Origin: an uncultured Bifidobacteriaceae bacterium | Lineage (GTDB): Bacteria; Bacteroidota; Bacteroidia; UKL13-3 | DNA length: 64,000 nt | NCBI GenBank assembly: GCA_964535575.1 | Contig: CAZHTC010000003.1 | Span: 112,640 to 176,639 of the forward strand | Reading direction: 5' to 3' | In this document: one piece after another, positions 29,345-44,840 of the stretch | Layout: the number at the start of each line of letters is the position of its first letter | Numbering within the stretch: position 1 is the first letter of the stretch | Made by a program: the position numbers and the translations under genes | The notes under the pieces: generated by a model | Told to the model about the DNA's origin: nothing | The model's input: only the letters and a program-made list of their open reading frames with translations | Database searches by the model: none

Positions 29345-30415
29345 ATGGAATCGCAGGAAGAATATATTAAGGGTCGGGGGGCACAGTTTAAAAGTGCTAA
29401 TCCGTTTTCGCGACTGAATATAGTTCAGGAATTTTTAGAAGGTATTGATGAATCACAATTTTATAATGAAACAACTACTCAGATAATCTATGATTATCCT
29501 AAAACGATTGTGAACAAAGTTGAGAGCCCTGATGTAGGTATGCGCTGGTCACTTAACCCCTATCAGGGTTGCGAACACGGATGCATTTATTGTTATGCCC
29601 GCAATTCGCATCAGTACTGGGGCTATAGTGCCGGATTGGATTTTGAAAGTAAAATAATAGCCAAACCCGAAGCGCCAGGATTACTCCGGGACTGGTTTAA
29701 TAAAAAAAGCTGGGAGCCCGAAACAATTTCTTTATCGGGTAATACCGATTGTTACCAACCGACTGAACGTAAATTAAAGTTAACCCGACAGCTTCTGGAG
29801 GTGTTTCGGGAGTACAAAAATCCGGTAAGTATTATTACCAAAAATCAATTAATTCTGAGAGATATCGATTTATTGCAGGACCTGTCAAAAGAGAATTTAA
29901 CAGCAGTTGTAATGAGTATTACTTCATTAAATGAAGACCTTCGATTGAAACTGGAGCCAAGAACAGCATCGTATAAAAGCAGGATCAAAGTAATTGAAGA
30001 GTTGGCCCGTCAAAACATTCCCGTGGGAGTAATGGCAGCACCGATAATTCCCGGTTTAAATATTTATGATATACCTAAAGTAATTAAAGCAGCGGCCGAG
30101 GCGGGGGCCACATTTGCAGGATACACGTTTGTGCGTTTAAACGGTAGTGTGGCCGATTTGTTCAAAGACTGGCTTTTTAAAAATTATCCCGACACATATA
30201 ATAAGGTATTGCATCAGATTGCGGGTGCTCATGGAGGTTCGGTCAACGACAGCCAGTTTAAAAGGAGGATGAAGGGAGAAGGGCAGATTGCTGATACCGT
30301 TGCTCAGCTTTTTAAAATAGCCCGCAATAAATATATGCCAGGCCACGGTTTTCCAAATCTGGATACCGGCAAATTTCAGCGACCACACGATAATGGCCAG
30401 ATCCGGCTTTTTTAA
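29345..30415 (+). CDS. Radical SAM protein of the SplB-like / PA0069 / Rv2578c family (COG1533, putative DNA-repair lyase)
   Basis: The cluster motif YQGCEHGCIYCYARNSH is the variant typical of this family. A TIM-barrel-length body follows. Confidence 0.7.
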   Translation: MESQEEYIKGRGAQFKSANPFSRLNIVQEFLEGIDESQFYNETTTQIIYDYPKTIVNKVESPDVGMRWSLNPYQGCEHGCIYCYARNSHQYWGYSAGLDFESKIIAKPEAPGLLRDWFNKKSWEPETISLSGNTDCYQPTERKLKLTRQLLEVFREYKNPVSIITKNQLILRDIDLLQDLSKENLTAVVMSITSLNEDLRLKLEPRTASYKSRIKVIEELARQNIPVGVMAAPIIPGLNIYDIPKVIKAAAEAGATFAGYTFVRLNGSVADLFKDWLFKNYPDTYNKVLHQIAGAHGGSVNDSQFKRRMKGEGQIADTVAQLFKIARNKYMPGHGFPNLDTGKFQRPHDNGQIRLF

Positions 30416-30702
30416 ATTCGACAATTGTTATTTTTTAGATGAATTTTAAATTTATTTTTTAATATAATTATAAATATTTGTTTTACAAGCATTTATTTTT
30501 TTATAAATTTTAATTATTTTAGACAAATAATTTTGTTTTATGAAAAAATGTGTACATTTGTGTCCGAACAAACGAAAAAATGAGTACAAAACTTAACCAA
30601 TTAATTACATCCGTTACGAATTGCCTTGATGAGGTGATCTGGTTACTCATACCCGGACAAAAAATGACTTACCAATTTTATAAACCTTTAAAAATTAATG
30701 TT

Positions 30703-31473
30703 ATGAATGCACTTAAAAAATTATCTCTGGCTGCACTTCTTATGTCGGCACTTCCGTCTTTTGCGCAATTGCAGGACGAAAAAAATGTTACTATCACCAT
30801 GGATCTTCAACCCATTCTTCAGTTAAACATGACAACTGCTGATCAGGTGAATTTTGTATTTGACGATATTGCCAGCTACTATGGTGGGTTGGTTCGTTAC
30901 GGGGCTACCACCCTTAAAGTATCAGCTTCTGTAACCTGGGATTTATATGCCGTGGGAACATCAACAAATGGTACAAGCTGGGACCAACAGGTGAAATATG
31001 GTACAGCGGCTAATCCAAATGCAATTGGAGCACTTCCTTTATCTGCACTTGAATTACACCAAAGAGGGGCTAACAACTATGATGCGAATGCTACCGGGGC
31101 ACAAACCGATTACAGTGCTCAGTTTTCTCCGGCTCAAACAGCTGCCGTGGGTGTAAATTGTATTTATACAAATGCAAATCCATATATCGCACCTACCGCT
31201 GCCGATAAATACATTCAGGGCCATAAAGGAACTGTTGCCGCACAGGATGGAGCACCTGGAGGAAGTTACCTAACAGCTACCACTTCGGCCGGTAGCGGTA
31301 ACATAAGTGATTATATGTTTATCATTGACTATCGTATTTTGCCCGGATTACCAGCAGTATTTCCGAATGCTGGAGATAATGCAGGAACGTCTCAATCCCT
31401 CACTGCGGGGCAGTATGCTCAACCCGGTGTGTATACTATGAATGTTAAATATGTATTACTCGAGGATCAATAG
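30703..31473 (+). CDS. Secreted subunit-like protein A (paralogue of 32512..33153), candidate fibre subunit
   Basis: SPI-type signal ...ALPSFAQ. The mature N-terminus has an alternating hydrophobic strand (VTITMDLQPILQLNM). The C-terminal motif DYMFIIDYRILPGL...GVYTMNVKYVLLEDQ is shared with the second copy. There is no T9SS CTD. Confidence 0.5.
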   Translation: MNALKKLSLAALLMSALPSFAQLQDEKNVTITMDLQPILQLNMTTADQVNFVFDDIASYYGGLVRYGATTLKVSASVTWDLYAVGTSTNGTSWDQQVKYGTAANPNAIGALPLSALELHQRGANNYDANATGAQTDYSAQFSPAQTAAVGVNCIYTNANPYIAPTAADKYIQGHKGTVAAQDGAPGGSYLTATTSAGSGNISDYMFIIDYRILPGLPAVFPNAGDNAGTSQSLTAGQYAQPGVYTMNVKYVLLEDQ

Positions 31474-31605
31474 GTTGATTGTTTTTTCATATGCCCAAAT
31501 TCGTAGTCGGTCCGAAAGGATCGGCTGCGTTTTTTTATCGGGCGGAAAACACAATTCCAATAATAAGAACGAGGACTAAGTTATCAGACCTAAACAAAAG
31601 GGCAG

Positions 31606-32484
31606 ATGAAAAACAACAAACCAAATTTATTTTTATTCCTATTCTTTTTCGGAATAATCGGCACGTTAAAGTCGCAGGTAATTTCAACAAGTGATTTGAA
31701 ATCGGATACAACTACAATTGCCGATGAAGGGGTTGCGGTAACTCCGTCCAGCATCAGATTATTTCTTAGACCTGGCGAAACAATTACTAGGGAAATAAAG
31801 GTTACCAACAAAACAAAAAGGGCCTATTCCTTTAGTGTGGCTTTTAATGATTTTAATATGGGCGAAAATGGAAAACCTCAAAACATGGACAGTGCTTTTC
31901 ATAAGTTCTCTCTGTCGAAGTGGGCCGTTGCATCGCCTATGTTTTTTGAGGTTCAGCCTGGTCAGGTACAAAAAGTTCAACTTACTATCACTATTCCGGC
32001 TGATGAGTCGGGGAAAGTGGCTGCCTGGACAATTATGAGTATTGATCAGGTGGCTAAAAGAGAACAGGTGGTAACAGCAAGCAGTGATGCCAAATCGGTT
32101 GCACTGGGAGTAATTCCTAGTTTTGGCTTTGGGATTTATGTGTATCAAAACCCACCTGATGCCGGTGTACCAAAACTTGAAATTGACAAATTTGAAAAAA
32201 CCACTGATGGGAAAGATAAAGAGAAAAGATTATTGCTCCATGTAAAGTCGGAAGGCAATGCCATAGGTTTTTGTCATTCGTATATTGAACTTACTAATAC
32301 TTCAACAGGGGAGTTAATCAAATTGCCGGTGCGCCACTTTACTATTCTCCCGGGTTTTGAACGGGCCATCTATTTCAGTTTACCTGCACAACTTTCAAAA
32401 GGAAAATATTCTGTCATGGCAGTGATAGATTACGGAAGTAAGGAAGATATAAAGGCAGCCGAACTTGAGTTGCAGGTAGAATAA
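31606..32484 (+). CDS. Periplasmic protein with a PapD/FimC-like pilus-chaperone signature
   Basis: After the signal peptide, VAVTPSSIRLFLRPGETITREIKVTNKTKRAYSFSVAFND aligns by eye with FimC GVALGATRVIYPAGQKQEQLAVTNNDENSTYLIQSWVEN. Shared positions are the invariant Arg, P-G, VTN and the trailing aromatic. Further Ig-like segments follow. Confidence 0.45.
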   Translation: MKNNKPNLFLFLFFFGIIGTLKSQVISTSDLKSDTTTIADEGVAVTPSSIRLFLRPGETITREIKVTNKTKRAYSFSVAFNDFNMGENGKPQNMDSAFHKFSLSKWAVASPMFFEVQPGQVQKVQLTITIPADESGKVAAWTIMSIDQVAKREQVVTASSDAKSVALGVIPSFGFGIYVYQNPPDAGVPKLEIDKFEKTTDGKDKEKRLLLHVKSEGNAIGFCHSYIELTNTSTGELIKLPVRHFTILPGFERAIYFSLPAQLSKGKYSVMAVIDYGSKEDIKAAELELQVE

Positions 32485-32511
32485 TGTTCAATATAATTTC
32501 CGGTACTACCA

Positions 32512-33153
32512 ATGGAAATACAAAAACAATATTTCGTTCTTTTAGGCACATTGTTGCTATGTGCCGCCACTACACAGGTGAATGCCCAGTGCGGGCCACC
32601 GGCAGCAAGCAATTGTCAGGCAGTTCCTGCCAGCAATATGTTTATTACCGGAAACACTAATCTTGACTTTATTTTCGATTCATTCGGCAAATATAGCAGT
32701 GGTATTACCATAAGCGGGGCCACACAGTTACGCCTCACAGTTTTGCCAAATAATGCTTCCTGTAAATGGAAATTAAGGGTGTATATCGACAACAATCCTT
32801 CAGCCCCTACACCGTTAAATGAATGGGAAACACTTTCAGGCTATGGAGGAACAGGAAATATTCCGCAAATAGATCTAATGGAGGTTAGAATTTATAACGG
32901 ATGCAATACCCCTATCAACAGCGGAATTTATCAAAATTTCACCCCACTAAATGGTTCTTATATCGATATCATAAATGATATAGTGCTTAATCCTGCAGGT
33001 TCTTGTGTTTCCAATGTAAATGGTGCCGGAAGTTATCTCACCAATTACAAGGAGTACAGTTTTACCATCGACTACCGCCTGCAGCCCGGATTGCTTTATA
33101 AGGCTGGGGCTTACCAATTAACACTAAGGTTTTGTCTGGTAGAAGATGTATAG
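32512..33153 (+). CDS. Secreted subunit-like protein B (paralogue of 30703..31473)
   Basis: Signal peptide ...TQVNAQ. Cys pairs are present. The C-terminus YSFTIDYRLQPGLLYKAGAYQLTLRFCLVEDV shares the IDYR-x-x-PGL ... aromatic/hydrophobic ... L-x-ED motif with protein A. Confidence 0.5.
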   Translation: MEIQKQYFVLLGTLLLCAATTQVNAQCGPPAASNCQAVPASNMFITGNTNLDFIFDSFGKYSSGITISGATQLRLTVLPNNASCKWKLRVYIDNNPSAPTPLNEWETLSGYGGTGNIPQIDLMEVRIYNGCNTPINSGIYQNFTPLNGSYIDIINDIVLNPAGSCVSNVNGAGSYLTNYKEYSFTIDYRLQPGLLYKAGAYQLTLRFCLVEDV

Positions 33154-36097
33154 CCGCAAAACGATAGCAGGGATTAAGGTCGAACCAAAAAGAAAAATAT
33201 TCTTTTGTTTCCACCTTTTTTTGTTTCTTCTTGTTTTTACCTATTCAATAAGTTTTGCTCAAAATAACCCAGCGCAGCTTCTTATTTTTCCAAAGCAAAA
33301 GATAATACGCATTGAAGAAATGGCAATAGTAAGCAATGTAGTACTTATAAGAAACAATTCAAACGCGGAGGTAAGGTTTTCGATAGAAGCAACCATGCCC
33401 AAAGGATGGAAGCTGTTAAATACAAAAGCTGTTTATACGGTGAATGGAAACGATTCGCTTTTTGTTCCGGTAAGAATTATTCCGACAGGTCCTCTTAAGG
33501 GAAATACCGAGTATATTATTGACCTTATTGTTTATAATACATCAAAAGTAAGGTTAAACTCGGCCTCTTTCTCACTGCTTATATTGAAGAAAACAAACTG
33601 GACCCTTGGGGTTGAACCATCAAATAAAATTTACTTTCTTAACAATTCAACTAAAACCAATTTTACGGTTCGCTATTCTAACAATGGAGATGACGATGAA
33701 CCGGTGCTTACTACTTTCAAACAAACAGATAAAAAAATTTCCATCACTGATAGTTCGGGTAATGTAATAGAGAATTACAAAGATATTTTTACTTTACGGT
33801 CGAGGCAGGATACACAGGTAACTTTTAATGTTTCGTTTGCCGAAAATACGCATAATATTAAGCGGGTTGATTTGGATAACCATCTCCCAAATTCAACGGA
33901 TGAAGAGCGAAAATTCTTGCTTTTTCTTCAATCGGCTGAGGCAAACAGCAAAGACAATAATAGTACATTCAGAAAGAGCGAGAAAATTGAATTTATTAAA
34001 CTGTCAAACCGCAAAAAAATTAATCCATATGCCTCAGATGCACTGCCGTTGGTAATGGAAAATAATATTTTTAACGTTATGGGAATACAACCGGTAATGT
34101 ACCTTAATCTGCGAGGGAATACATTACTTGAAAATAATTCCAATCTGTTTTATTATGCCCAAACAAGCTACTCCAGTTATTTCACAACTCCCGATTTTGC
34201 CCGAAATATTGCTTATTACGCGGGTTACTTTCATGAAAAGGGAGATATTCAGATAGGAGATATGAGCGGTTCAGGTACAATAGGTTTTCAAAGTTTCGGA
34301 CGCGGGATTAAAGGAAGTTATAATTTTACCAAGCGTCACAATGTTGGTGGTTTTTTGCTAAAGTCTCCCCGGTTGTCTGATCCCAATGGAAGCGTTTCGT
34401 ACGGGGCCAATTATAAGTTTTCATTCAACCGCTCTGATTATGCATCTGCACAGGTAAGCCGATCTGAAAATTTGTTGCATCATACTTCAAGTAATTTTGT
34501 AACTGCCACTACACGGATGAATTTATTCAAAAATCACGGGGTAACGCTTGGAGGAGGAATAAGTTCAAGAAACCATCCCGTGAGTAATCTGAAAAAGAAC
34601 GGAACATATGTTAACTTTAACTATTCGGGATTGTTTCTGCAAAATCGGCTTTCGGCTGTATTGCGTATAAGTAATTTGTCAAAGTCATTTGGTGAAAGTG
34701 GCTCGGGGCGTTTTTATGTGTATCACCAAACCGGGTTTACTGTTTCAAAAAAATTAATGCTCATGATGCAAAATAATTATACCACCATGACTACAGTCGG
34801 CAATGCCGGGTATAATTACTTTAACAATCAACTGTTTTTTAATATTAAACAGCAAAGAGGTGCAGTAGTGCCAAGCCTTTTATTCAACACTCAAAATACG
34901 TTTGGTTTGAGAAGACACTTTAAAGGAGTGGGTTTTGATTATAATTATTATCATATACTCTCAAATATTAAAGTCTCTACTTCTCTCAGAGCGGGCTACA
35001 ATAAACTGATTGATTATCGTGATGTATCTTCATTTTTTTCAGCTAACGCCAATCTGCTTACACAGTTCAGAACGTTAAGTTTTACCATGCGGTATTTCTA
35101 CGGACCTACCGTGGTGAGAAATGCCGATGATATAAAAAATCTGCGCAGGTATCCGCAAACTTTTTTCACCTCCCTTCAGCATCAGCTAATTTTTAAAAAG
35201 GAATATTTTGTTTTGCAAAACAACCTCAATTATTCTTACTATAATCAGTTTTTCAGCCACACGTTCGGGTATTTTCCCGAACTTTATCTGTTTACACAAA
35301 ATGGTTGGCGTTTCAGAGCGGGGGTTGGTGTTTCAATGAATGTAAGTAATCCGCGAAAAGCGCTCGAAATGCAAAACCCCGGACAAATTCCAGGTAGCAA
35401 TGGCGTGAGCACCAATATTCTTACAACCAACCTGAATGTTCAGTTTGGGGTGCGTAAACAATTTGGAATACCTGTGCCTGCACAATTTACTCATCGCAGG
35501 TTTGTTACCATTAATTATTTATGCTTTATGGATTTAAACGGAAACAGGATTAAAGATAAAGCCGAACCCGAGCTTGAAAACATTGTTATAAGAACCGGGG
35601 ATGAAGAACTGATGACAGATTTAAACGGGCAGGCCGAACTCATTAATCTGGAGGCGGGGCGCTACAAAGTGAGTCTGATAAATCTTAGTGAATCTAAAAC
35701 ATGGTTTCCGGTTATTGGGGATAGTGTATTAATGGATCGGTCTAAAACCATAATGGTTCCTTTTGTTAAAGGATCAAAAATTACCGGACAAATATACCTG
35801 CAGCGCGAAAGATATGCGGTAGATGAGGAAATAAGTCTCGACTTATCGCGTATAGTGGTTACTGCCGAGGATTCGATGGGGAATAAATACCGAACCATTA
35901 CACGAATGGATGGTACTTTTGAGTTGTTTGTACCAAATGCCCGCTATATCCTTAATTTAGATGCCGGAGTTTGGGGCGATCAGTTTACGGTTGTCAACAA
36001 TAACATGATTGTTGAGCTCAATCTTAAAACGGAAAATACGTTTGTTTCTTTTCAGGTAGTGGAGCGGCAGAGAAAACTACAGATAAAAAAATTCTGA
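33146..36097 (+). CDS. Large outer-membrane protein, candidate usher-like assembly platform
   Basis: 983 aa. A signal peptide is followed by an Ig-like N-terminal region and a roughly 500-aa N/S/Y/F/G-rich region with alternating beta-strand pattern. Two Cna-B/CarboxypepD_reg-like C-terminal domains follow (DLNGNRIKDKAEPELENIVIRTGDEE...). The terminal Phe is typical of an outer-membrane barrel. The start overlaps the stop of subunit B. Confidence 0.4.
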   Translation: MYSRKTIAGIKVEPKRKIFFCFHLFLFLLVFTYSISFAQNNPAQLLIFPKQKIIRIEEMAIVSNVVLIRNNSNAEVRFSIEATMPKGWKLLNTKAVYTVNGNDSLFVPVRIIPTGPLKGNTEYIIDLIVYNTSKVRLNSASFSLLILKKTNWTLGVEPSNKIYFLNNSTKTNFTVRYSNNGDDDEPVLTTFKQTDKKISITDSSGNVIENYKDIFTLRSRQDTQVTFNVSFAENTHNIKRVDLDNHLPNSTDEERKFLLFLQSAEANSKDNNSTFRKSEKIEFIKLSNRKKINPYASDALPLVMENNIFNVMGIQPVMYLNLRGNTLLENNSNLFYYAQTSYSSYFTTPDFARNIAYYAGYFHEKGDIQIGDMSGSGTIGFQSFGRGIKGSYNFTKRHNVGGFLLKSPRLSDPNGSVSYGANYKFSFNRSDYASAQVSRSENLLHHTSSNFVTATTRMNLFKNHGVTLGGGISSRNHPVSNLKKNGTYVNFNYSGLFLQNRLSAVLRISNLSKSFGESGSGRFYVYHQTGFTVSKKLMLMMQNNYTTMTTVGNAGYNYFNNQLFFNIKQQRGAVVPSLLFNTQNTFGLRRHFKGVGFDYNYYHILSNIKVSTSLRAGYNKLIDYRDVSSFFSANANLLTQFRTLSFTMRYFYGPTVVRNADDIKNLRRYPQTFFTSLQHQLIFKKEYFVLQNNLNYSYYNQFFSHTFGYFPELYLFTQNGWRFRAGVGVSMNVSNPRKALEMQNPGQIPGSNGVSTNILTTNLNVQFGVRKQFGIPVPAQFTHRRFVTINYLCFMDLNGNRIKDKAEPELENIVIRTGDEELMTDLNGQAELINLEAGRYKVSLINLSESKTWFPVIGDSVLMDRSKTIMVPFVKGSKITGQIYLQRERYAVDEEISLDLSRIVVTAEDSMGNKYRTITRMDGTFELFVPNARYILNLDAGVWGDQFTVVNNNMIVELNLKTENTFVSFQVVERQRKLQIKKF

Positions 36098-36267: not shown

Positions 36268-36672
36268 ATGAAAGTAGTACCCTTATTTCTCCTGCTTACA
36301 TTCCTTTGCTTTCAGAAGGCGAAGGCCCAATCAACGTGGCAAAACCTTGATACAGTAAAGGCTCCTGCGGTGTACGATCATGTGCATTCGGTAAGGTTGT
36401 ATGGTGATACACTGGTCACCAGTTTTTTACTTTTCATTAAAGATGAGGTCAAAAACCACTTTCATGATGAGCACAGTGAGCATATTTATGTGTTATCAGG
36501 CACTGCACTTATGACACTTGACGGGAAAACATTTCCAATTAAAAAAGGCGATTTCATTTTTGTGCCTATGCAAAAAAGGCATAGTGTGAAAGTAACCTCT
36601 ACCGTTCCACTCAAAGTTATTTCCATACAAGCCCCTTGGTTTGACGGGAAAGACCGGTTGGTTGTGAAGTAA
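36268..36672 (+). CDS. Cupin-domain protein (secreted)
   Basis: Signal peptide. Cupin motifs HFHDEHSEHIYVLSGTA...GDFIFVPMQKRH. Confidence 0.6.
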   Translation: MKVVPLFLLLTFLCFQKAKAQSTWQNLDTVKAPAVYDHVHSVRLYGDTLVTSFLLFIKDEVKNHFHDEHSEHIYVLSGTALMTLDGKTFPIKKGDFIFVPMQKRHSVKVTSTVPLKVISIQAPWFDGKDRLVVK

Positions 36673-43232: not shown

Positions 43233-43337
43233 ACCGGGCAAAGATAGGTTTTAACCCTTATGCGATGAAACAGAAAACAAAGAATATTTATGCCACTTGT
43301 TTCGTTCTATAAATAATAATATTGAAGCCCTTGTGGT

Positions 43338-43697
43338 CTATTCGTCTTTCTTTAAATCCCTGAACTGATGCTTTACCTTATGCCACCACTCCATGCCGTG
43401 GGTTTGTTTAAGGTAACTTATCATGGTTTTATTATAGATATTGATGCCGTTGTTCTCGCCTATAGAAGGAATTTTGCCCGTTTTTTCAAAGGTAAAACCA
43501 AAGGCTTTGGCAAGAGAATCCCTTCCGGTATCGGCAGGCGGATTACCAAATTCAATTATCCGTATCTTACCTTTATCCTGATCTATCATTGCAGTAATGT
43601 AATTGTACCGGCAAAAAAAGCCAAGGTAGTAGGCCATATACCCAAATACCCCCAAAATAATAATGGTGATAAAATGAGCGGGCTTTATTTTATTCAT
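43338..43697 (-). CDS. Hypothetical membrane-anchored protein
   Basis: Single N-terminal transmembrane helix. No recognisable motif. Confidence 0.35.
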   Translation of the reverse strand: MNKIKPAHFITIIILGVFGYMAYYLGFFCRYNYITAMIDQDKGKIRIIEFGNPPADTGRDSLAKAFGFTFEKTGKIPSIGENNGINIYNKTMISYLKQTHGMEWWHKVKHQFRDLKKDE

Positions 43698-44347
43698 ATG
43701 AAGTAATTATTCAGGTCAAAGTAACATACTTTTTTTCAAATTGCGACAGTTACTCCTATATATATAAGGTAAAACAGCAGTTTTTCATTGCTGATTCTGC
43801 GGGTTTCACTCCGAAATACCTTTGTTCTGGGTGTATTTTCATTGCAGAAGTTGAATCCTGACCCGTTTTTCCCTGTCGATAACTGGTGTTTTTAGAGGGA
43901 AAAGAGGGTTTTTAAAGAAAAAAACAACTTTTTTTAGTTGGGCGTATAGGCTGTTGCCAATGAAAATTCTGCGCGGTAAAGCGAATTTACCAATGAAAAA
44001 AATATGCAGACAAAATATGCAGAAATAAGTTTTTACGAAAGAATCGTTTGCGTATTATCAATTCGCTGAAACTATTGAAAACACAGGCTTCTTCAAGGAT
44101 TTGCAAAAAGGCTATTGTTTGTTTGTTTTCGCAATTCATCAATGGAAAAACAGGCTAAAAAATCACATTTAGCAGGGAAAATAGCCTTAATTAAACCAAT
44201 TCTCATTGGATATTGCAATAGGGGAGTGTACGATTTTAATAACATTTATTTTAAGAAATGTGGAAACTGTTTTGTTGCAACCGCTATGAAATTTGCAATG
44301 AAGATGTATTTTTGACTATCAGATCAACTGAATAAAAGTTTAAACCC

Positions 44348-44746
44348 ATGGCAAAAAAAGTAGTAAAAGCAAAAAAAGCTGCTAAAAAAGCAGCTCCAAA
44401 AAAGGCTGCTAAAAAAGCAGCTCCAAAAAAGGCTGCTAAAAAAGCGGCTCCAAAGAAAGCAGCTAAGAAAGCAGCTCCTAAAAAGAAAACTGCAAGAAAA
44501 CCAAACGCAGCTTTCATGGCTCCATTAACTCCAAGCGCTACGCTTGCTGATGTAATCGGAACCAAAGCCCTTCCAAGGACTGAGATCGTTAAACAAATTT
44601 GGAACTACATTAAGAAAAACGGTCTTCAGGACAAGAAGAACAGAAGAATGATTAATGCCGATGCAAAACTGAAAGTTCTTTTCGGTGGCAAAGGACAGAT
44701 TTCTATGTTCGAGCTTGCTAAGATTGTTTCTAAGCATGTAAAGTAA
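44348..44746 (+). CDS. Histone-H1-like Lys/Ala-rich protein fused to a SWIB/MDM2 domain
   Basis: The N-terminus has (AAKKAAPKK)x4. The C-terminus VKQIWNYIKKNGLQDKKNRRMINADAKLKVLFG is a SWIB fold. Confidence 0.8.
   Translation: MAKKVVKAKKAAKKAAPKKAAKKAAPKKAAKKAAPKKAAKKAAPKKKTARKPNAAFMAPLTPSATLADVIGTKALPRTEIVKQIWNYIKKNGLQDKKNRRMINADAKLKVLFGGKGQISMFELAKIVSKHVK
44372..44479 (+). repeat. Four tandem 27-nt coding repeats (aaaaaggctgctaaaaaagcagctcca) inside the H1-like gene
   Basis: Directly visible. Copies 1-3 are near-identical and copy 4 is diverged. Confidence 0.9.
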
Positions 44747-44765
44747 TTTAGCATTTCATGCAATA

Positions 44766-44796
44766 AAGAGAGGGCAGCAATGCCCTTTCTTTATTT
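44766..44796 (+). terminator. Putative terminator after the H1-like gene
   Basis: agagggca-gcaa-tgcccttt imperfect hairpin followed by CTTTATTT. Confidence 0.4.
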
Positions 44797-44840
44797 ACAG
44801 CGATTTCTATAACCGGGATAATACCTATCTTTACTGCTTC

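Follow-up and report, generated by a model that had tools for sequence, protein, structure and literature searches.

Within the literature that we searched, Bacteroidota have been linked only to type V pili (FimA/Mfa1) and to adhesins of the type IX secretion system (T9SS). Type V pilins are Lol-carried lipoproteins that are activated by proteolysis and polymerize by donating a C-terminal strand, with neither a chaperone nor an usher. In chaperone-usher pili (Fim/Pap, CFA/I-CS1 and Csu/CupE), a major subunit, a chaperone, a minor subunit and an usher are encoded together, with a stem-loop after the major gene, and the subunits are joined by N-terminal donor-strand exchange into a single n+1 chain. 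Exchange of an N-terminal strand also builds TLP-1a and TLP-1b (PDB 9IKJ and 9IKK), 8-nm tubules with a 15-Å lumen that were solved by cryo-electron microscopy (cryo-EM) directly from filtered pond water (CryoSeek; Wang et al, PNAS 2024; PMC11494351). In these fibrils the mature N-terminal strand β1 of protomer n+4 inserts between β2 and β7 of protomer n (PMC11494351), from which we read the tubule as four separately strand-linked protofilaments. The protomer sequences were derived from the cryo-EM density; the authors found no metagenome or mass-spectrometry match, left the species and identity undetermined, did not consider gene neighbourhoods and proposed 'uncategorized bacterial pili' (PMC11494351). 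Here we describe a four-gene cluster in a 64,000-nucleotide (nt) stretch of a Bacteroidota genome (GenBank contig CAZHTC010000003.1, positions 112,640–176,639; hereafter the window), whose first gene, A, by homology encodes the building block of a TLP-1-type tubular pilus. This gives the orphan TLP-1a/b structure a genetic and taxonomic home, and the other three genes supply its missing half: a candidate chaperone, a candidate minor subunit and an usher-like pore.

The literature searched, with subscription journals outside its scope, holds neither a later identification of the TLP-1 genes nor a chaperone-usher system of Bacteroidota. The fibre structure was already known anonymously; new relative to that literature are its gene, operon and host phylum, together with a dedicated chaperone-like and usher-like pair without sequence similarity to the classical, alternate and archaic chaperone-usher families. 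We consider it fairly probable that these genes form a self-contained operon encoding a TLP-1-type tubular pilus, built by donor-strand exchange with chaperone-usher-like machinery that has no recognizable sequence homology to its counterparts. The open reading frame (ORF) list places four co-oriented genes where the original prediction had them, namely A (secreted protein A), C (a 292-aa periplasmic protein), B (a paralogue of A) and U (a 983-aa outer-membrane protein):

30703–31473, + strand: gene A, major pilin of TLP-1 type, 256 aa
31606–32484, + strand: gene C, candidate donor-strand-complementing chaperone, 292 aa
32512–33153, + strand: gene B, minor paralogue of A, 213 aa
33146–36097, + strand: gene U, usher-like outer-membrane protein, 983 aa

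The start of U overlaps the stop of B by 8 nt (GAAGATGTATAG), as had been described, and the gaps between A and C and between C and B measure 132 and 27 nt, respectively. All four products are predicted from sequence to carry Sec signals for signal peptidase I (SPI) without a lipobox, in line with the earlier reading for A and B, and each has a glutamine at the predicted +1 position (SFA|QLQ, LKS|QVI, VNA|QCG and SFA|QNN). This fits the 'Q-rule' of Bacteroidetes signal-peptidase-I substrates, which leaves an N-terminal pyroglutamate. Pfam and NCBIfam scans of the four proteins returned nothing significant, including no match to the FimA/Mfa, TonB-receptor, PapD or usher families, and the claimed absence of a T9SS C-terminal domain held at E ≤ 1. 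The system shares with type V pili the phylum and the strand-exchange principle, but differs from them in lacking a lipobox and a FimA/Mfa match and in having its donor strand at the N-terminus.

The decisive evidence on A is that, among PDB sequences, the A/B family profile retrieved 9ikk_A (E 1.6e-59) and 9ikj_A (E 1.3e-56) over the whole chain, and nothing else of note. With A alone, phmmer gave E-values of 6.7e-45 and 5e-44 for the same two chains (A residues 25–255 against chain residues 3–236), and BLASTP gave 39.5% identity to TLP-1 over 235 aa. The signal peptide of A comprises residues 1–21 and is cut at the same position as in TLP-1; the resulting mature N-terminus, QLQDEKNVTITMDLQPILQL (nt 30766–30831), aligns with residues 2–20 of the TLP-1 chain, which form the donor strand (LISEQNVTVTMDLQPVLQL in TLP-1). 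The C-terminal strand is common to both as well (PGVYTLNVKFVMVE in TLP-1 and PGVYTMNVKYVLLE in A). Across 88 A sequences, the donor-strand segment, i.e., the 20 mature N-terminal residues, is the most conserved block, with a mean column conservation of 0.89. Homology to the solved TLP-1 fibrils therefore suggests that A polymerizes by donor-strand exchange, and the putative fibre of A need not share the helical parameters of TLP-1a/b. The original prediction had allowed for A and B being unrelated enzymes, which they are not, A being a full-length homologue of a solved donor-strand-exchange fibre subunit. Compared with chaperone-usher pilins, A is larger (235 aa in mature form) and has long outer loops. 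Its family comprises 886 homologues (clusters at 90% identity), and when 31 members of the A/B family were compared with Pfam at E ≤ 10, scattered noise appeared but no WxL, SCPU or fimbrial family. None of the homologues collected here exceeds ~44% identity to the TLP-1 chains, so none of them points to the pond organism itself. The CryoSeek reference model A0A2M8AA21 ('Flavobacteriales bacterium') probably comes from a Crystal Geyser-type metagenome-assembled genome (MAG). Two Crystal Geyser MAGs, Flavobacteriales bacterium CG_4_9_14_3_um_filter_32_8 and CG_4_10_14_0_2_um_filter_35_18 (loci L052 and L066), carry the full C-A-B-U cluster.

The four genes travel together. When one genome for each GTDB species was scanned for relatives of A, 191 genomes proved to encode one; hidden Markov models (HMMs) of A, B, C and U were compared with the six-frame ORFs of 80 of these loci and of 7 metagenomic loci. 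Wherever a locus had enough flank, the four families lay side by side in one orientation, and incomplete gene sets were mostly due to contig ends, so the neighbourhood is conserved, a check that the original prediction had proposed. The order C-A-B-U prevails (68 loci), followed by A-B-U-C (6), A-C-B-U (3; the window and its two closest relatives) and C-A-A-B-U (1), and one further metagenomic contig has the order U-C-A-B. Such clustering is far beyond chance. The flanks vary from locus to locus, and no fifth linked gene family was found among 82 loci, the best flanking family (12/82) looking like RecG helicase. The single C-A-A-B-U locus, in a Bacteroidales MAG (L063:6911–8567), contains a tandem pair of major-subunit genes.

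The module is present in at least 191 species-level genomes, which belong to Bacteroidales, Flavobacteriales, Chitinophagales and Sphingobacteriales and come from freshwater, groundwater and marine as well as engineered habitats. Named carriers belong to Bacteroidales, Lentimicrobiaceae, Flavobacteriales (Crocinitomicaceae, Vicingus, Salibacteraceae, Parvicella and Flavobacteriaceae), Chitinophagaceae and Sphingobacterium, and the closest relative of A (99% identity) lies in the MAG 'Bacteroidia bacterium SSF48' (JAIBAK010000034.1), which presumably represents the same species as the window. Two carriers are cultured, Pseudotenacibaculum haliotis KCTC 52127 (locus L070) and Pseudotenacibaculum sp. 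MALMAid0570, which makes the model directly testable. The sole label outside Bacteroidota among the 80 listed loci is that of a Chlorobiota-labelled MAG (L091, JAADJA010000056.1), where an insertion of ~1.3 kb separates A from B and U is broken into two ORFs; horizontal transfer, mis-binning or decay could be the cause.

The claimed paralogy of A and B is borne out by BLASTP (E 4e-7, 23% identity over the full length) and by HMM cross-matches (3e-9 and 2e-12), while B alone has no match among PDB sequences. B retains the acceptor-side motifs (F.FD..Y..G, W.L, GSYLT, EY.F.IDYR..PG and G.Y.L...F.L.E) and the C-terminal strand. Its donor strand is missing and is replaced by an unconserved Cys/Pro-rich N-terminus (QCGPPAASNCQ); three Cys residues of the protein are near-invariant. 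Judged by these motifs, B is plausibly able to accept a strand but unable to donate one, which makes it a candidate tip, cap or nucleator subunit.

An AlphaFold model of C (32 sequences, pLDDT 84.7) shows two Ig-like β-sandwich lobes, formed by residues 43–148 plus 174–181 and by residues 191–291, in the boomerang arrangement of a two-lobed, PapD-like chaperone. SafB, FimC, YadV, CupB2 and EcpB are the structures listed beside the model, and WxLIP is among the best structural matches. The original prediction had assigned to C a PapD/FimC-like N-domain signature, which survives as a fold in the model and not at the level of Pfam; its fear that C might prove to be something other than a two-lobed Ig-like protein did not materialize. 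Lobe 1 is closed by a conserved hydrophobic strand (residues 165–184; family consensus VALGIIPTFxFGVYIYQNPP), just after a low-confidence loop of ~25 aa, and this strand is our candidate for the one donated to the subunit cleft. By sequence, C has only sub-threshold Ig-like Pfam matches (WxLIP_PGBD/DUF916, E 0.003), and single-sequence and profile searches against PDB sequences gave noise only (synaptotagmin C2, E 0.008). C has 45 detectable homologues; JGI calls three of them 'P pilus assembly chaperone PapD', NCBI calls one 'DUF916', and several carry a precomputed PF06030. An hhalign probability of 78.6% against Escherichia coli chaperones was discounted, as it was inflated by aligned signal peptides.

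For U, the AlphaFold model divides the protein into the following segments, all on the + strand:

aa 45–231 (nt 33278–33838), + strand: two Ig-like domains
aa 232–298, + strand: poorly defined segment, low confidence
aa 299–776 (nt 34040–35473), + strand: barrel of ~26 consecutive transmembrane-length strands
aa 786–973 (nt 35501–36064), + strand: two prealbumin-like β-sandwich domains

The architecture in the model is that of an usher, with a periplasmic N-terminal region, a large barrel and C-terminal β-sandwich domains. When the model was compared by Foldseek with 350,542 PDB chains, the top ten matches were all full-length ushers, FimD (E 9e-15 to 1e-12) and PapC (1e-9 to 3.5e-9), in alignments of ~780–835 columns; the best non-usher barrels, Cir, LptD and MtrB, followed at 3e-6 to 2e-5, at least five orders of magnitude behind the best usher matches. 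TM-scores were low (~0.3), as may be expected if the domains are arranged differently. The concern that U might be a TonB-dependent barrel is answered by the absence of PF07715 and PF00593 matches and by an N-terminus that models as two Ig-like domains. As in ushers, β-sandwich domains lie on both sides of the barrel. Ushers have a 24-strand barrel, compared with ~26 strands in the model of U. Further differences are two N-terminal domains instead of one, the lack of a visible inserted plug, and C-terminal domains that weakly match CarboxypepD_reg and SdrD_B. On this model, U has usher architecture rather than usher-family membership and a plug is not evident; the segment before the barrel (residues 232–298) could gate the pore. 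At E ≤ 1e-30 the family has 328 members, each representing a 50%-identity cluster, and, in a search of 1.84 billion representatives with the U profile, the 150 matches listed were full-length family members only, among which a bridge to ushers could not appear. Some U homologues reach 1,300–1,560 aa (P0187, P0209, P0211, P0191, P0202 and P0212), with 350–610 extra N- or C-terminal residues that match no Pfam family. We also considered whether the N-terminal domains of U are themselves chaperone-like, and rejected this on an hhalign probability of 0.2% between the C and U families.

The likeness to chaperone-usher operons extends to a stem-loop downstream of the major gene:

31502–31529, + strand: strong terminator-like hairpin 3′ of gene A (12-bp stem with 7 G–C pairs, T7 tail)

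It starts 29 nt past the A stop codon; a wider delimitation ends at 31539. By a simple rule that asks for a hairpin and a T-run, such a structure follows A within 130 nt of the stop at 75 of 88 loci (85%), as opposed to 15 of 86 stops of C, 28 of 84 of B and 9 of 73 of U, and it is present after A whichever gene comes next. In the pap and fim operons, a stem-loop after the major-subunit gene results in more subunit than machinery. From its conservation, the hairpin after A is probably an intra-operon attenuator or an mRNA-stabilizing stem, through which the subunit would be made in large excess over the machinery.

Taken together, these data are consistent with the following sequence of events, in which C and U most likely assemble the A pilus. 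All four products would be exported by Sec and cleaved by signal peptidase I, leaving an N-terminal Gln. A, produced in excess over the machinery owing to the hairpin, would have an incomplete Ig-like fold, with a cleft that takes up the conserved N-terminal strand of a second A in the fibre, as shown for its homologues TLP-1a/b. In the periplasm, C would cap this cleft, likely through the conserved hydrophobic end of lobe 1, and block polymerization of A; its fold and its strict co-occurrence with A suggest this role, and C may cap B too. The usher-like architecture of U suggests that C:A complexes dock on its periplasmic β-sandwich domains, where the chaperone strand would be swapped for the N-terminal strand of an incoming A, and that the polymer exits through the ~26-strand barrel. 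Because B lacks a donor strand and its translation is coupled to that of U, it may be the first to enter and so come to lie at the distal tip, or else cap or nucleate the fibre. The binding partners and the site of exchange are what we infer; the scheme is built on three findings, namely that A is homologous to a fibre made by donor-strand exchange, that C and U have the folds described, and that the four genes are obligately linked.

Several results weigh against this scheme. C has no Pfam or NCBIfam match to the PapD family (PF00345/PF02753), and hhalign of the C family with FimC, EcpB, EcpE, YadV and YehC, signal peptides removed, gave a probability of 11.8% (E 0.0025). U has no Pfam match to the usher family (PF00577), neither its sequence nor its family profile retrieves a PDB sequence, and hhalign with FimD, EcpC, HtrE and YehB gave a probability of 0.2%. 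Membership of C and U in the PapD and usher families by sequence, the comparison to which the original prediction had pointed, is thus not supported; the divergent chaperone-usher-type system that it proposed is supported by the homology of A, by the modelled folds of C and U and by the operon layout. The model of U is of moderate quality (13 sequences; pLDDT 72 overall and ~80–90 in the barrel; pTM 0.43), and the strand list that DSSP derives from it contains no ~80-aa insert within residues 299–776 that could be a plug. Finally, it is not obvious how one usher pore would yield four n+4-linked protofilaments around a 15-Å lumen, where chaperone-usher pili have one n+1 chain. With this geometry, the usher paradigm faces a concrete mechanistic difficulty.

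Because a single usher pore explains the four-protofilament geometry poorly, we keep as a serious, if rather unlikely, rival a mode of assembly analogous to that of curli. U would then be only an export pore and C a holdase keeping A unpolymerized, and A would polymerize at the surface without a chaperone on cell-bound B, with growth at the distal end. The n+4 build would be easier to achieve from free monomers than from a single pore, and TLP-1 fibres occur free in filtered pond water (PMC11494351). Chaperone-free donor-strand polymers do exist, TasA and the archaeal cannulae being examples (PMC12518558). A subunit that accepts but does not donate would suit a cell-proximal nucleator, as CsgB is for CsgA, as well as a tip, and the plug expected of an usher was not seen in the model of U. 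Yet the fold of C is that of a two-lobed chaperone and not CsgC/E-like, and U resembles ushers in its overall architecture and in its N- and C-terminal β-sandwich domains, the sites at which ushers handle chaperone-subunit complexes. In addition, a monomeric barrel of ~26 strands would be wide enough to let folded subunits pass, as usher barrels do, which argues for chaperone-usher-like assembly over a curli-like route.

The fold of C also brings to mind the WxL clusters of Firmicutes, which encode a WxLIP (DUF916 + DUF3324) together with a small and a large WxL protein, and in which AlphaFold2 predicts that a strand of WxLIP inserts into its partner (PMC10599100, PMC9772566). Such clusters likewise combine one two-Ig-domain protein with two paralogous secreted partners. 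If the present locus were their Gram-negative counterpart, C would be a WxLIP-like anchor holding A and B in a non-filamentous surface complex and U would be a translocator, in keeping with the weak WxLIP_PGBD/DUF916 signal of C, the PF06030 and DUF916 labels of its homologues, and an invariant W-x-L motif in A and B (WDL and WKL). We regard this as very improbable: the homologue of A is a solved filament, the WxL family is absent from the 31 A/B members scanned at E ≤ 10, and the C family profile does not retrieve 9i1y by sequence. C ends in ...AAELELQVE and lacks the C-terminal transmembrane helix that defines and anchors WxLIP, and the WxLIP families (PF06030 and DUF3324) and, in the partners, the WxL family (PF13731) yield no match above threshold. 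WxL clusters, moreover, are Gram-positive, have no barrel protein and are not known to form filaments. Least credible of all is a transport locus in which U is a TonB-dependent-like or porin-like protein and A, B and C are surface or periplasmic binding proteins, since U has no Plug or TonB_dep_Rec match in Pfam or NCBIfam and models as a ~26-strand barrel without an N-terminal plug, Foldseek places ushers far ahead, A is a fibre subunit by homology, and no SusD-like or enzyme genes are linked to the cluster.

Returning to chaperone-usher-like assembly, the cluster would extend this form of donor-strand exchange to Bacteroidota, a host phylum different from those of chaperone-usher pili. It is possible, and we put it forward tentatively, that the locus represents a separate chaperone/usher-type lineage, extremely diverged or convergent, that is widespread in environmental Bacteroidota and builds a hollow four-protofilament pilus beyond the known single-usher mechanisms. 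If so, a new mechanism would be needed, such as several U pores in register, a B cap templating four strands, or nucleation at the surface. The fold shared by C and WxLIP would in that case suggest that two-Ig strand-complementing 'holders' of surface proteins with an incomplete β-sandwich predate the split between the two cell-envelope types.

Upstream of the cluster lies an AT-rich region, now measured at 287 bp, in which the low GC content noted originally is confirmed by computation (0.25–0.27, compared with ~0.40 in the flanks):

30416–30702, + strand: AT-rich leader and promoter region 5′ of gene A (287 bp)

The ORF finder lists gene A from a GTG at 30550, but the 51 additional residues fall inside this leader and are common to no homologue. 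Because all homologues begin ~21 residues before the conserved AQL motif, we place the true start at the ATG at 30703 (MNALKK...). The leader contains two matches to TAnnTTTG, the Bacteroidetes −7 consensus, at 30528–30535 and 30553–30560. As the motif is not enriched across the window (77 found, 79 expected), these are candidates and not evidence of a promoter.

No tRNA genes were found in a search of the whole window, which includes a 1.6-kb interval (43242–44840) devoid of ORFs of at least 150 aa. The flanks of the cluster contain housekeeping genes (SSB, PurQ and GltX), and its immediate bounds are a radical-SAM gene (29345–30415) and a cupin gene (36268–36672). The radical-SAM gene (~355 aa) adjoins the cluster in the window and is found no more than 3 kb away in several relatives (7 loci, including L004:15126–16187 and L006:15273–16349), a proximity that looks like residual synteny rather than linkage.

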